Positions 61 through 48,056 of a stretch of DNA of 55,586 nucleotides are shown here, piece by piece (positions within the stretch are counted from its first letter, which is position 1; the number at the start of each line of letters is the position of its first letter). Both the position numbers and the translations under genes were made by a program. Source of the stretch: Peptostreptococcus sp. (GTDB lineage Bacteria; Bacillota; Clostridia; Peptostreptococcales; Peptostreptococcaceae); contig JAHHSS010000001.1 of assembly GCA_020025095.1 (NCBI GenBank), positions 1 to 55,586 of the forward strand, in the 5' to 3' direction. The notes under the pieces are model-generated. The model saw only the letters and a list, made by a program, of their open reading frames with translations. It had not been told where the DNA came from and ran no database searches.

Positions 61-141
61 TTACAAACAAATTGTAGTATTACTGGTATTTCTCAAATAT
101 TTAGCTTTGATCCTCGACATCAAAACTACCGTCTCACAATG
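61..141 (-). pseudogene. Displaced 3' end of rlmD beyond the att junction (HCETVVLMSRIKAKYLRNTSNTTICL*)
   Basis: Hand translation of the minus strand. It resembles the H-x-E-T-V-V-L-M-S-R C-terminus of RlmD/RumA and is in frame with rlmD when joined at CAT. Confidence 0.8.
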
Positions 142-153
142 TGTTGTCAATAG
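126..153. other. att junction at the integrase end of the ICE
   Basis: Minus strand ctattgacaacacATtgtgagacg. The ICE arm forms an imperfect inverted repeat (9/13) with the arm at 46718-46730 around a central AT. Confidence 0.8.
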
Positions 154-1900
154 GATAGGAATGCAAATTATTAACCTCGTCGCTTGATTGAGGATACAAT
201 TTGTTGTCAGTTTCCTCATTAACTTTCTTGGCATTTTTTCTTCTACTCTTAAATAATCTTCCGTCCTGAGAATCTTTCTTTCCAGTCTTGTATATGATGG
301 TAATCATTGCAGGATCAATCTCTCCTTCATCGTTAATTCCTCCAATGATAATTTTATCTACTATACTTTCAAATACAGCTCTATCAAATTCCTCAAGGTA
401 TTTATTAGACTCAAGTAATTTTTTAAATCCCTCAAGCCTTTTCTTCAATGCTTTTTCATCAGTAAGTGTTACTTCTAAAGTCCTCTTTTCTGCAAGTAAT
501 TTTTCTTTGCTTACAGCTATTTCATTATACTTTTCCTGATATATATCCATACTGATTGATTCATTCAATCTTAATTCAACAAGATCCTTTTCTTTCTTCA
601 ATATCTTATCAAGTTGATTGGTTATCTTTTTTAGGTCTTTAGCTAAACTGTTATCTTTCAATTCTTCTTCAACAGTTTTTAGAAATTCGTTGGTAATTTC
701 TACATTATTGTGGCATACCTGACGATAGCTTTCCATAAATGCTTTTTCTATAGCTGCTTCTTCAATTCCTTTGCTATGCGGACAATATTTCTTTCCGTTT
801 TTAGTAGCATTAACACACTGCCATATCACTTTTGTGTATTCTGAACTTGAATGCCAATTTCTTCTTGAAAGGTTATAACCGCAAAATCCACATTCAAGCA
901 TACTGCTAAAAGCATATTTTCTTGAATATTTTTCTCTTTTTCCACCATTATTGGCAACAGTATTTCTGTTTTTTGACCTTCTTAATCTAATACCTTGAGC
1001 TTTTTCAAAATCTTCTTCCGAAATGATTGGCTCGTGATGGTTTTCTATATAAAACTTATCCTGTTCTCCAAAATTGTCTAATCTTCTCTTTGAAATAGGA
1101 TCAACCGTATAGGTCTTTCCCATCATGAGATCCCCTTTATATTTCTCATTTTTTATGATTCCCAAAACTGTTGTTTCAGTCCATCTTTTATTTCCTCTTG
1201 GTGATAAATATCCCTGTTCTTCCAGCTCTCTTGAGATTACCATACCACCAACGCCTTCAATGTATCTTCTGAAAATATATCTTACAATTTCAGCTTCTTT
1301 TTCGTTTACAGAAATGCTTTTTGTTTCCGGATCATAGTCATAACCTAAACACCCTTGAAAGCCGACCATTTCTCCTCTTTCCATCTTCATTCTCAAGCCT
1401 TTTTTAACATTGGCTGAAATGTTCTCTACTTCCTGTTGAGCAACTGAACTTAAAATAGTCAAAAGCAATTCTCCATCCATTGTTAAGGTATTTATGTTTT
1501 CTTCTTCAAAAAATACCGCAACATTAAACTCTTTTAACTTTCTTACATACTTTAAAGTGTCTAATGTATTTCTCGCAAATCTTGATATAGACTTTGTAAT
1601 TATCATATCTATATCGCCATCCATACAATCATTTATCAACCTTTGAAAGTCAATTCTTCGATCAACCTGTGTTCCTGTTATCGCTTCATCAGCATATATT
1701 CCGGCAAGAGTCCACTCTTTATTTTTCTTTATAAATTCTGTGTAGTGTTCTACCTGAGAATTATAGCTGTTGATCTGATCTTCAGTGTCCGTACTAACTC
1801 TGCAATAAGCTGCCACTCGCTTTATTGAGCGTTCAACACAGCCTGATGCAGTTCTTTTCAGTGTGGTATCACCTTTAATAACTCTTACATCTTTCTTCAC
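134..1900 (-). CDS. Large serine recombinase (integrase); C-terminally truncated form in the integrated state
   Basis: N-terminal YCRVST catalytic motif, SISRFARN, recombinase domain, Zn-ribbon (CGFCG...WQC...C) and coiled coil. GTG start with AAGGAGG RBS. Confidence 0.95.
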   Translation of the reverse strand: MKKDVRVIKGDTTLKRTASGCVERSIKRVAAYCRVSTDTEDQINSYNSQVEHYTEFIKKNKEWTLAGIYADEAITGTQVDRRIDFQRLINDCMDGDIDMIITKSISRFARNTLDTLKYVRKLKEFNVAVFFEEENINTLTMDGELLLTILSSVAQQEVENISANVKKGLRMKMERGEMVGFQGCLGYDYDPETKSISVNEKEAEIVRYIFRRYIEGVGGMVISRELEEQGYLSPRGNKRWTETTVLGIIKNEKYKGDLMMGKTYTVDPISKRRLDNFGEQDKFYIENHHEPIISEEDFEKAQGIRLRRSKNRNTVANNGGKREKYSRKYAFSSMLECGFCGYNLSRRNWHSSSEYTKVIWQCVNATKNGKKYCPHSKGIEEAAIEKAFMESYRQVCHNNVEITNEFLKTVEEELKDNSLAKDLKKITNQLDKILKKEKDLVELRLNESISMDIYQEKYNEIAVSKEKLLAEKRTLEVTLTDEKALKKRLEGFKKLLESNKYLEEFDRAVFESIVDKIIIGGINDEGEIDPAMITIIYKTGKKDSQDGRLFKSRRKNAKKVNEETDNKLYPQSSDEVNNLHSYPIDNTL

Positions 1901-1939
1901 TGCATCTGCCTCCTTTTTTGTATCTTTCTATGCAGTCTA

Positions 1940-1948
1940 ATTATACCA
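1940..1948 (-). promoter_or_regulatory. Extended -10 promoter element (TGgTATAAT) upstream of the integrase
   Basis: Minus strand tggtataat about 40 nt upstream of the start codon. Confidence 0.55.
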
Positions 1949-1961
1949 CACTTGCAAAACA

Positions 1962-46159: not shown

Positions 46160-46189
46160 ACAGGATCACCTCCCTCCTTAAAAATTTGC

Positions 46190-46225
46190 AAAGAAAAAGA
46201 CGATAGTTTTTTCTCTATCGCCTTT
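46190..46225 (-). terminator. Terminator-like hairpin (loop AGAAAAAA) upstream of repA
   Basis: Minus strand AAAGGCGATAG-AGAAAAAA-CTATCGTCTTT-TTCTTT. Confidence 0.68.
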
Positions 46226-46248
46226 GGTAACCATTTTTATGAAATTTT

Positions 46249-46533
46249 TTAGATTGATTTTATTGCTTCATTGATACCTTGTAAAAAAGCTATAACTACT
46301 GCTCCAACCATCGGTATTCCGTATGGACTTAACAAGAAACCTAATATCAATGCTTCTATTCCCATTGAAAAATCCTTTTGGAATAATGATACAACCCCCA
46401 CAACGACACACATAAGCATTAGCAAATACAATATTGTTGTTCCTATGGCAAGTAAAAATTTCAAAAATGCTGTGAGGATACTTAACAGCAAGCTAATTGG
46501 AAACAAGATTATTTTTATTATCCATCTCATCAT
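46249..46533 (-). CDS. CD1845-family membrane protein
   Basis: Hydrophobic; FLLSPYGIP motif; first full gene at this end of the ICE. Confidence 0.8.
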   Translation of the reverse strand: MMRWIIKIILFPISLLLSILTAFLKFLLAIGTTILYLLMLMCVVVGVVSLFQKDFSMGIEALILGFLLSPYGIPMVGAVVIAFLQGINEAIKSI

Positions 46534-46731
46534 TTAGTAGTCCTCACTTTCTAAAGCGTTCTTTGTATCTCCACACACCATATCAATGCAAACATTCACA
46601 TCAATATAATTTTTTAGGACTTTTTTTCGTCCTCCCTCTCCATCTTCTACAAATACATAATACTTGTAAAACTGCTTAAAATGCAGGATTTTCACTATTT
46701 CACTCTTTGTATCAACGCTATGCACTCCACA
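46534..46731 (-). CDS. Detached C-terminal segment of the serine recombinase (CGVHSVDTKSE...ESEDY)
   Basis: In frame with integrase ...PIDNT when the ends are joined at CAT; no RBS of its own. Confidence 0.7.
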   Translation of the reverse strand, partial: CGVHSVDTKSEIVKILHFKQFYKYYVFVEDGEGGRKKVLKNYIDVNVCIDMVCGDTKNALESEDY

Positions 46732-48056
46732 TGCGGTGTATTCGGGAACATATCCATTAGTTTTACTTTTTCTATCTTATACCCTCTTTCTTCAAATTCT
46801 ACAAGGTTTTCTACTAAAGACTTTGGATTACAGCTTACATAAACTATTTCTTTTGCTCCAAATTCAGATATATCCTTAACGCCATTTCCCATTATTCCAG
46901 CTCTTGGTGGATCTACTATTATTAGATCTGCATTTTCAGGAAGATTGCTCACTATCTTTGAAACATCTCCCGCTATAAACTCACAATTTCTCAAACCGTT
47001 TAACTTAGCATTCTGATTTGCAGCTTCTACAGCTTCCTCTACTAGCTCTATTCCATAAACTTTTCTTGCGGTCTTTGCCATTAACTGGCCTATAGTTCCA
47101 GTTCCACTGTATAGGTCAAATACTACCTTTCCATCACCACTATTACCTGCAAAATCCCTTGCTATTTCATAAAGCATTTCTGCACCCTTTGTATTTGTTT
47201 GAAAAAATGAAAATGGAGATACTTTGAATTTTAATCCTAATACCTCTTCATTAAAAAAGTCTCTTCCATGAAGAACCCTAAGTTCATCACATTTTACAGC
47301 ATCAGCCAAGCCATCATTTATAGTATGAAGTATACTTACTATTTCATTTTTCAAATTTAAAGATTTTAATAGCTCAGCGTATTGATTCATATCAAAGTCT
47401 ATTTGTGATGATGTTACTATATTTACCATCAATTCTCCCGTGTTTTCACCTTTTCTAATTACAAGATGTCTTAAATATCCTTGATGATTAAAAGATCTAT
47501 AATAAGGAATTTCTTTTTCATCAAAAAAATCTCTAGTTTTTGTCAATATTTCTATAAAATCTGAATCTACTAATCTACAATCATCTACGGTTATTATATC
47601 TATAAATCTTCCTGTTTTGTGCATACCAAGGGATAAAGGTCCGTCTTTTACTTCATCTCCAAATGTAAATTCCATTTTGTTTCTATACTCTGTTTGAGAT
47701 GGACTTCCCTGTATTCCAAGATATTCAAATCCAGTTAAATTCTTAGCTTTAAATAATTCCATTACTTGATTTTCTTTTATTTCAAGCTGTTTTTCATAAG
47801 GTATTGAAAGTATACTACAACCTCCACATTCCCTGAAATGTCTACAAGTTTCGGCAGTTTCTATATCTGATGCTTCTAGTAGTTCTAACATTTTTACTTC
47901 ACCACTATCACTTCTAGATTTTTTTACTACTGCTTTTACTTTTTGGCCTGTGATTCCGCCCTTCATTTTTATTCTTTTATTATCGTATATGGATCTAGAA
48001 ATTCCTCCAAACTCCATTTTTCCAACTTCAAATTCTATAATATCTTTTCTTTTCAT
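46695..48056 (-). CDS. rlmD: 23S rRNA (uracil-C5)-methyltransferase RlmD/RumA; last 11 codons supplied by the ICE
   Basis: TRAM-like N-terminus, CRHFRECGGC, SFFQTN, DLYSGTGTIG, VDPPRAG, YVSCNP and DMFPNTPHVE motifs. Confidence 0.95.
   Translation of the reverse strand: MKRKDIIEFEVGKMEFGGISRSIYDNKRIKMKGGITGQKVKAVVKKSRSDSGEVKMLELLEASDIETAETCRHFRECGGCSILSIPYEKQLEIKENQVMELFKAKNLTGFEYLGIQGSPSQTEYRNKMEFTFGDEVKDGPLSLGMHKTGRFIDIITVDDCRLVDSDFIEILTKTRDFFDEKEIPYYRSFNHQGYLRHLVIRKGENTGELMVNIVTSSQIDFDMNQYAELLKSLNLKNEIVSILHTINDGLADAVKCDELRVLHGRDFFNEEVLGLKFKVSPFSFFQTNTKGAEMLYEIARDFAGNSGDGKVVFDLYSGTGTIGQLMAKTARKVYGIELVEEAVEAANQNAKLNGLRNCEFIAGDVSKIVSNLPENADLIIVDPPRAGIMGNGVKDISEFGAKEIVYVSCNPKSLVENLVEFEERGYKIEKVKLMDMFPNTPHVECIALIQRVK
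46718..46745. other. att junction within rlmD
   Basis: Minus strand aatacaccgcATgtggagtgcatag. Confidence 0.8.

Follow-up and report, generated by a model that had tools for sequence, protein, structure and literature searches.

The gene for a large serine integrase at one end of an integrative conjugative element (ICE) in Peptostreptococcus sp. raises the question of whether one recombinase gene can encode two enzymes, according to the state of the DNA that carries it. The element lies in contig JAHHSS010000001.1 of assembly GCA_020025095.1. The complete contig of 55,586 nucleotides was analysed and is referred to here as the window; it is part of a metagenome-assembled genome of 1.52 Mb in 149 contigs that is 96.75% complete, and the single integrase match in that genome sits at the end of the element. 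The original prediction, made from the window alone, placed the attachment site attP inside the integrase gene, int, with a long form of 652 amino acids (aa) encoded by the excised circle and a short form by the integrated element. Junction sequences and reading frames agree with this claim, and the arrangement is real and widespread. Taken as a whole, the best explanation is probably that of an ICE in rumA with state-dependent int ends, in which a conserved beta-hairpin belongs to the circle-encoded form only.

Crossover within the integrase gene

The features on which the argument depends are as follows.

139..46733, minus strand: ICE of about 46.6 kb (Pfam scan of 43 open reading frames (ORFs) and junction sequences)
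134..1900, minus strand: large serine integrase, short form, 588 aa, of which 587 are element-encoded and the final leucine and stop are host-encoded (Pfam)
140..141: predicted attL crossover dinucleotide CA, with CAT common to both junctions at 139..141 (junction and relatives' ends)
46732..46733: predicted attR crossover dinucleotide CA (CA directly before the tail frame in 16 of 18 loci)
142..167, minus strand: putative attP P arm within the last nine or so int codons, extent approximate (conserved S-Y-x-x-D-N-T/A codons)
46537..46731, minus strand: 65-codon tail that would join the int frame on excision, stop at 46534..46536 (relatives and natural int-tail fusions)
46695..48056, minus strand: rumA-type 23S rRNA uracil-5-methyltransferase gene holding the element (PF05958, profile positions 2-356 of 357)
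61..138, minus strand: native rumA 3' end (B' side) severed by the insertion, reading C E T V V L M S R I K ... stop (ORF 61..234, minus strand, has THCETVVLMSR; the relative G014 has PHCETV)

The minus-strand sequence of attL, the left junction, is cct att gac aac aCA Ttg tga, with CAT at 141..139 and the int stop codon at 136..134; that of attR, the right junction, is acc gCA Tgt gga gtg cat agc, with CAT at 46733..46731. CA occupies the second and third positions of the last element-derived int codon, and the T at 46731 is the first position of a frame that is open for 65 codons to a TAA at 46536..46534. A join at CAT keeps the int frame into the 65-codon frame, and therefore gives a predicted product of 587 + 65 = 652 aa. 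The orphan ORF at 46534..46725, read as a 63-aa protein in the Pfam scan, had been assigned to the long form by the original prediction, and indeed it is the tail frame counted from a GTG inside the att core.

Contigs from 4 public runs of 4 studies contain an int gene at least 99% identical; in every case their agreement with the window stops precisely to the left of base 139, where they pass into the rumA ends of other hosts. The closest relative, genome G014 (rumA 90% identical), is unoccupied and reads CCA CAT TGT GAG ACA GTA, the same as the left flank of the window. Between the window junctions only CA (CAT here) is common, and there are no long direct repeats, as expected of a large serine recombinase. 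The P arm was drawn as 142..167 because serine-integrase sites are usually 40-50 bp.

Reference genomes were scanned with a single protein, P0203, which gave 146 relatives, and the best 80 loci were kept. In these 80 loci 70 int ends were found, 63 with the anchor motif and 7 without. Of the 63, 62 have CA as the final two bases of the last element codon; across the 63 ends the next base is T in 40, C in 21, G in 1 and A in 1. CA alone is common around the junction in the same-contig pairs G413, G163 and G340. Because the base after CA varies among int ends and the same-contig pairs share CA only, the exchanged dinucleotide is assigned to CA, one base left of the AT at the centre of an attP dyad. 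The dyad, with 9 of 13 positions symmetrical about AT, was recomputed and is as originally reported; an equal score was obtained for 134 of the 55,558 positions of the window and for 62 among 20,000 shuffles. AT as the crossover was ruled out by the variable base following CA in the 63 int ends and in the same-contig pairs. The earlier join at CAT was thus right in its products and frame, with the exchanged dinucleotide corrected from the dyad centre to CA; either dinucleotide would give identical products in this window.

The integrated ORF carries PF00239 (Resolvase, E 1.8e-31, residues 29-177), PF07508 (Recombinase, 6e-27, residues 200-307) and then PF13408 (Zn_ribbon_recom, 2.2e-12, residues 331-392), and ends DNTL*, two codons beyond the CA/CAT core. 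All three domains are kept, and integration removes only the tethered tail. Relatives of the C-terminal half of the integrase (41 proteins of 328-783 aa) have the common end S-Y-x-x-D-N-T/A, followed by unrelated sequence; integrases of the Streptococcus suis type are 56-59% identical over the last 209 residues (380-588). In the 63 int ends of the P0203 lineage, 1-72 residues (median 11) lie between the last element codon and the stop. These residues are host-encoded except at two contiguous int-tail loci, which are among those with the longest values and in which they are the tail itself.

In the mechanism proposed, a large serine integrase would have inserted the 46.6-kb element into the 3' part of rumA. 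Because the exchanged CA lies within the int ORF, integration would swap the 3' ends of int and rumA: rumA would gain the element-encoded C-terminus VECIALIQRVK*, and the integrase would lose its last 65 residues and end on one host-encoded leucine. The 652-aa form would then be encoded only in the attP configuration, that is, in the excised circle or at a tandem junction, and would consist of the 587-residue core, about 55 disordered residues and a conserved 40-residue beta-hairpin.

This layout has been described before. In the available text of Ambroset et al. 2016 (PMC4701971) it is stated that every streptococcal ICE in rumA has one att site inside the serine integrase gene, that integration swaps the 3' parts of rumA and int reciprocally, and that the excised element thus encodes an integrase of different length and C-terminus; the two forms were considered probably to differ in function, by analogy with phage Mx8. 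Examples given in the available text of that paper and of PMC5357655 include ICE_Spy2096_rumA and ICESp2905. The present element has the same att-in-int layout with reciprocal exchange of int and rumA 3' ends, and the rumA insertion, the single serine integrase at the element end and the conjugation module of rumA-targeting ICEs are present. It differs from the streptococcal elements in its host, which is not a streptococcus, and in its cargo, a YcaO bacteriocin-like cluster. The attachment site inside int is a rediscovery in a new host of an arrangement already published for streptococcal elements. The additions made here are the CA crossover, the frame-split selection, the hairpin fold, a tail that mostly lacks its own start, and intact long-form ORFs in two isolate genomes together with shorter fusions; in the available text of PMC4701971 the tail is not treated as a conserved domain, and no analysis is given of its fold, absent start codon or frame-specific selection.

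As summarised in the available text of PMC4701971 for the work of Magrini et al. 1999, Mx8 carries attP inside its integrase ORF, the C-terminus changes on integration from 112 residues to 13 (intP and intX), and the prophage form is less active. The position of attP in the integrase ORF is shared with the present element, but Mx8 is a phage with a tyrosine integrase and much more protein is replaced, whereas here a serine enzyme loses only 65 tethered residues that lie outside the known domains of serine integrases; the likeness is one of analogy only. No experimental comparison of two integrase forms was found in the literature, with subscription journals mostly outside the coverage. The parallels first offered, SSV-type integrases and mycobacteriophage BPs, do share an attP in a coding region, but the streptococcal rumA ICEs and Mx8 are nearer. 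SSV1-type archaeal integrases are tyrosine recombinases with attP inside int, and their integration breaks the gene into two parts that come to lie apart; here, by contrast, none of the catalytic, recombinase and zinc-ribbon domains is interrupted, and the stop falls two codons past the crossover. In BPs, attP lies in the repressor coding region, the integrase is a tyrosine recombinase and immunity is integration-dependent. The product depends on the integration state as it does here, but the truncated gene is the repressor and not the integrase.

Selection, fold and context of the 65-codon tail

Within and beside the tail, the following features were distinguished.

46696..46731, minus strand: tail codons 1-12, apparently serving as attP P' arm, long-integrase linker and, one base out of frame, replacement rumA C-terminus VECIALIQRVK* (pN/pS and rumA stop position)
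46579..46701, minus strand: predicted conserved beta-hairpin module, tail residues 11-51 (AlphaFold2 and pN/pS)
46693..46695, minus strand: GTG at tail codon 13 (GTG13), a possible own start that overlaps the rumA stop TAG (46695..46697) by one base and lies 7 nt after AAGAG (6 of 17 loci)
46249..46533, minus strand: DUF5699 membrane-protein gene, its ATG directly after the tail stop (TAAATG) (Pfam; same neighbour after the tail in 13 related loci)
46196..46225, minus strand: terminator-like hairpin 3' of the DUF5699 gene (consensus scan only, 1 found against 0.3 expected)

A representative protein library contained 199 relatives of the tail at E<=0.001. Nearly all are gene calls of 41-215 aa with the tail at the C-terminus and unrelated N-terminal extensions, such as read-through out of different host flanks would give. 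Among 399 genomes sampled from the class, 38 carry the tail, and 31 of 216 genera are represented; no Pfam family was common to its relatives (0 of 83). All 18 tail loci read as DNA keep the frame open between the crossover and the conserved part, and in 17 of them the rumA stop is at the same place, right where the conserved part begins. The rumA frame of codons 1-12 spells (H)VECIALIQRVK*, in which the His codon spans the crossover.

Selection was assessed as the ratio of nonsynonymous to synonymous differences (pN/pS) in 10 divergent loci (41-44 pairs, frame-specific substitution counts). Codons 1-12 gave a ratio of 1.26 when read as tail, 0.56 when read as rumA (+1) and 0.81 in the third frame. 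For codons 13-54 it was 0.48 in the tail frame, a rough figure from pairs that share ancestry and have a pS near saturation (0.60), versus 0.89 and 1.43 in the other frames. These ratios indicate that codons 1-12 are selected in the rumA frame and the next 42 or so codons in the tail frame. The 36 bases of codons 1-12 have three roles, as att arm, rumA end and long-integrase linker. The open frames and the ratio for codons 13-54 agree with the frame conservation that the original prediction proposed to check. Three points had escaped the original prediction: the replacement of the rumA C-terminus by this DNA in another frame, the possible start at GTG13 in this lineage, and CA as the crossover.

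Structure prediction with AlphaFold2 from an 83-row alignment gave one long beta-hairpin, with strands at residues 11-29 and 35-51, predicted local distance difference test scores (pLDDT) of 91-94 per block, and disordered ends. Relatives down to about 40% identity retain the tail length and strand pattern. The same hairpin (pLDDT 86-96) was predicted in a natural 160-residue ORF of genome G009 that joins an integrase end to a tail, and in this model about 55 residues with pLDDT below 50 separate the C-terminal helix-hairpin of the integrase from the beta-hairpin. Conserved hydrophobic residues lie on both hairpin faces (L16 and F18; F21 and F27), which suggests that the hairpin packs against another copy or a partner. 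No PDB fold match was obtained (Foldseek best E 0.65; VIA-align 0 of 48,161 chains at Z>=2), a lone hairpin being a poor query and the result no evidence of novelty, and the ESM Atlas gave no usable match or cluster for the tail.

The comparisons support the view that the tail is a selected protein module and not a chance ORF. The opposite view, that it has no function, that its conservation reflects DNA-level constraints (an attP arm, origin or promoter) and that the long form is a neutral side effect, is very improbable. The first 12 codons are shaped by other constraints, namely the rumA frame and the att site, and integrated short forms with 1-72 further residues persist in many hosts, as this view would have it; beyond codon 12, however, selection is frame-specific, and relatives of about 40% identity keep the length and strand pattern of a hairpin predicted with pLDDT above 90.

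How the tail would be translated depends on its start. Only 6 of the 17 loci compared have GTG13 with the Shine-Dalgarno-like AAGAG, and these 6 are close to the window; the remaining 11 have GTA, TTA or CTA at this position. A GTG at codon 3 occurs in 12 of 17 loci, but lies inside the att core without room for a ribosome site, and in 4 of 17 there is no ATG, GTG or TTG within codons 1-24. A selected domain that is mostly without a start is best explained, as far as these sequences indicate, as part of an upstream ORF that exists only in the attP configuration. An alternative that we regard as unlikely is that the tail is an independent small gene, encoding a peptide of about 53 aa from GTG13, translationally coupled to rumA and first of a tail-DUF5699 pair, in which case the match to the int frame would be a by-product of packing attP, the rumA end and the gene into the same 40 bases. 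In favour of such a gene, 6 of 17 loci, the window among them, combine GTG13 and an AAGAG lying 7 nt before it with an overlap of this start and the rumA stop in the form TAGTG or GTGA. Database calls often begin at GTG13 or GTG3 (P0053, P0055, P0060-P0065), the tail stop abuts the DUF5699 start, and the terminator-like hairpin follows DUF5699. The start is nevertheless absent in 11 of 17 loci in spite of a conserved and selected hairpin, the frame is open from crossover to hairpin in 18 of 18, and intact long integrase ORFs occur in nature.

The genes behind the tail bear on a further alternative, in which the arrangement would serve mainly to couple expression and not to make a functional tail. 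Circularisation would bring the tail and DUF5699, perhaps with replication genes, under the int promoter, and ribosomes translating through the junction would simply be delivered to the next start. Tn916 offers a likeness, as its joined ends reportedly permit transcription into transfer genes. In the attP configuration there is no intergenic DNA between int and tail, the tail stop abuts the next ATG, and in Allofustis a long int lies directly before genes for DUF5699, RepA, a DnaC-like protein and DUF3801, all as expression coupling would predict. Coupling alone would leave the amino-acid-level selection and the confidently predicted hairpin unexplained, and the terminator-like hairpin after DUF5699 makes read-through into the replication genes doubtful; we therefore hold it to be an improbable account of the tail. 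The relatives L106, P0192 and P0202 no longer have the tail stop, and their tail reads on, in frame, through the DUF5699 membrane protein to give products of 158-160 aa.

Natural long forms and the proposed role of the tail

Integrase and tail are contiguous in 4 of the best 80 P0203-related loci (of 146). Allofustis seminis has an intact int-tail frame of 656 codons, followed by the DUF5699, RepA, DnaC-like and DUF3801 genes, and Lagierella sp. has one of 644 codons. The Peptoniphilus lacrimalis frame is shifted at a run of A, and that of Streptococcus suis YS161 has a stop after ...ILHFK; the S. suis genome carries the same tail. Database proteins that join an int end to a tail in frame are P0203 (131 aa, 66-member cluster), P0071, P0082, P0111 (S. 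suis type) and P0121. P0208 has a longer linker between integrase end and tail, with the frame kept, and P0214 (632 aa, 141-member cluster) consists of a full integrase with 37 tail residues, ending at the run of A. The run comprises seven A at the turn of the hairpin (GGRKKV; window about 46621-46627, minus strand) and is a recurrent frameshift point: the P0214 cluster and P. lacrimalis (L047) both end there as GGRKKS*.

Frequent stops or frameshifts in relatives' tails, named in the original prediction as evidence that would speak against it, were not found in tails at element ends. Of 16 tails at element ends (attR), none has a stop before the hairpin end; two other loci, G009a and G297, are contiguous int-tail junctions. 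True tail loci are intact in 13 of 16 cases, and all 3 broken ones are chromosomal contiguous int-tail remnants. On this evidence chromosomal attP-like junctions are often relics and tails at ordinary element ends are intact. Two more contiguous junctions have decayed: that of G009, which lies in a tandem of two elements in rumA, has a whole tail but an upstream integrase with a stop, and that of G297 has a frameshift.

Several observations weigh against the proposed reading. Only 2 of 6 chromosomal int-tail junctions are fully intact, 3 being broken (frameshift in L047, stop in L049, frameshift in L122/G297) and G009 having the int stop. The lineage of the window has GTG13 and could yield a free 53-aa peptide, so that the tail need not be fusion-only here. 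In the AlphaFold model of the G009 ORF the hairpin is not placed with confidence against the C-terminal domain of the integrase (predicted template modelling score 0.32), and the selection estimate for codons 13-54 is approximate, as given above. The dyad centre AT is one base off the CA crossover. Finally, all 24 runs listed are Logan DNA contigs; an attP circle junction of the element was found in none of the 4 runs examined, a result uninformative on excision because contigs drop rare variants, and the loose junction ends in these 4 runs lead only into the rumA of other hosts.

What the hairpin would do is a separate matter from the arrangement that encodes it. The proposal is that it gives the circle-encoded enzyme a property that the integrated-state enzyme lacks, so that the form of the enzyme follows the state of the element. 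Our preferred guess is that the hairpin would help attP x attB synapsis or integration, or would shift activity or stability as for Mx8 IntP/IntX. That it alters enzyme function at all is put forward tentatively, by analogy, and is held to be rather less likely than not; that the two forms constitute a directionality or stability switch, as first proposed, is purely inferential.

The large serine integrases of phiC31 and Bxb1 have separate directionality factors, gp3 and gp47 respectively, and their attP sites lie outside int; the present enzyme is of the same family, but here it is the integrase that changes with the state of its DNA. The hairpin could be a built-in directionality module, with the long form competent for attP x attB or barred from excision and the short form carrying out attL x attR, perhaps together with a small protein encoded beside int, although this more specific idea is doubtful. 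The small protein in question is encoded by an ORF of 48 aa:

1962..2108, minus strand: 48-aa ORF directly upstream of int, with a weak match to SHOCT_2 (PF20612, 5.9e-05, below cut-off)

A relative of this ORF was detected by tblastn just upstream of int in 9 of the 80 related loci, and the protein is a candidate accessory or directionality factor.

The choice of serine integrases between integration and excision is an active question in mobile-element biology and in genome engineering. The clade described here is common in Clostridia and streptococci, related streptococcal elements carry resistance genes according to published papers, and it provides a natural case of an enzyme that differs between two DNA states. 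The question can now be tested on a defined 40-residue hairpin on a disordered tether that is selected, usually has no start of its own and is found in intact long-form genes. If the forms do differ in direction or activity, this would be a new control principle for the enzyme family; if the directionality reading is true, the state of the encoding DNA, and not a separate directionality factor alone, would set the direction in a large clade of large serine integrases. If they do not differ, the arrangement would be a case of compact overlapping coding, of mainly descriptive interest.

The element, its target and related rearrangements

The Pfam scan of the 43 ORFs identified conjugation genes for a relaxase, a NikA/MobC-like partner, a coupling protein (T4SS-DNA_transf) and a VirB4-like ATPase (TraG P-loop/AAA_10), genes for PrgI, a TrbL-like protein (TrbL_2) and a CHAP hydrolase, and genes for a topoisomerase, RepA_N, a DnaC-like ATPase and DUF3801. 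No drug-resistance family was recognised among these ORFs. Other genes inside the element are listed below, all assigned by Pfam.

16691-17965, minus strand: AbiJ-like protein
18439-18933, minus strand: IS200-type transposase
19795-28773, minus strand: 2992-aa SNF2/Eco57I-methylase/helicase protein
3548-12777, minus strand: cargo genes for an amidohydrolase, two CAAX-protease-like proteins, a nitroreductase, a ThiF-like protein, YcaO, an ABC-2 permease and ATPase, and an AraC/GyrI-like regulator

The cargo region resembles a locus for a thiazole/oxazole-modified peptide (bacteriocin) with export or immunity genes.

The contig stops 133 bases past the left junction, and the contig of the closest relative (L003) stops 16 bases past the same rumA site. 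Assemblies seem to break at this site, perhaps from the coexistence of occupied and empty sites.

Several related rearrangements were observed in other genomes. The rumA gene of G009 (contig C3, 105403-162262; L005, L041-L043) holds a tandem of two different related elements; their inner junction resembles attP, with the int of one element and the tail of the next, and the inner integrase has a TAA at codon 482. G003 (contig C1) has a partial tail remnant adjoining rumA at 391722-391829 and a complete element of about 54.5 kb at 476433-531007, in a second rumA-like gene ending HVECVALLSKP. In P0196 and P0199 the N-terminal half of a relative of a 136-aa ORF (MAKEYYLYV...LDHDG; window 2571-2981, minus strand) is joined straight to the tail (VHSVDTK...), and these joins look like deletions or secondary-site recombination that removed the integrase.

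P0209-P0211 and P0070 carry residues 1-41 of the tail fused to an internal stretch of a different serine recombinase, in a 158-aa protein also labelled as a Caudoviricetes integrase, and another mobile element has apparently inserted in the tail. Plasmid pAPRE01 (L044, NC_013164.1) was considered as an out-of-frame counter-example and was dropped, since a different recombinase is inserted there beside a tail. This recombinase (2349-4171) ends ...VEAIALIQKM* in the rumA frame of the tail linker; the second element apparently targeted an element-borne rumA-like end, an instance of accretion, and its att site also lies inside its own gene.

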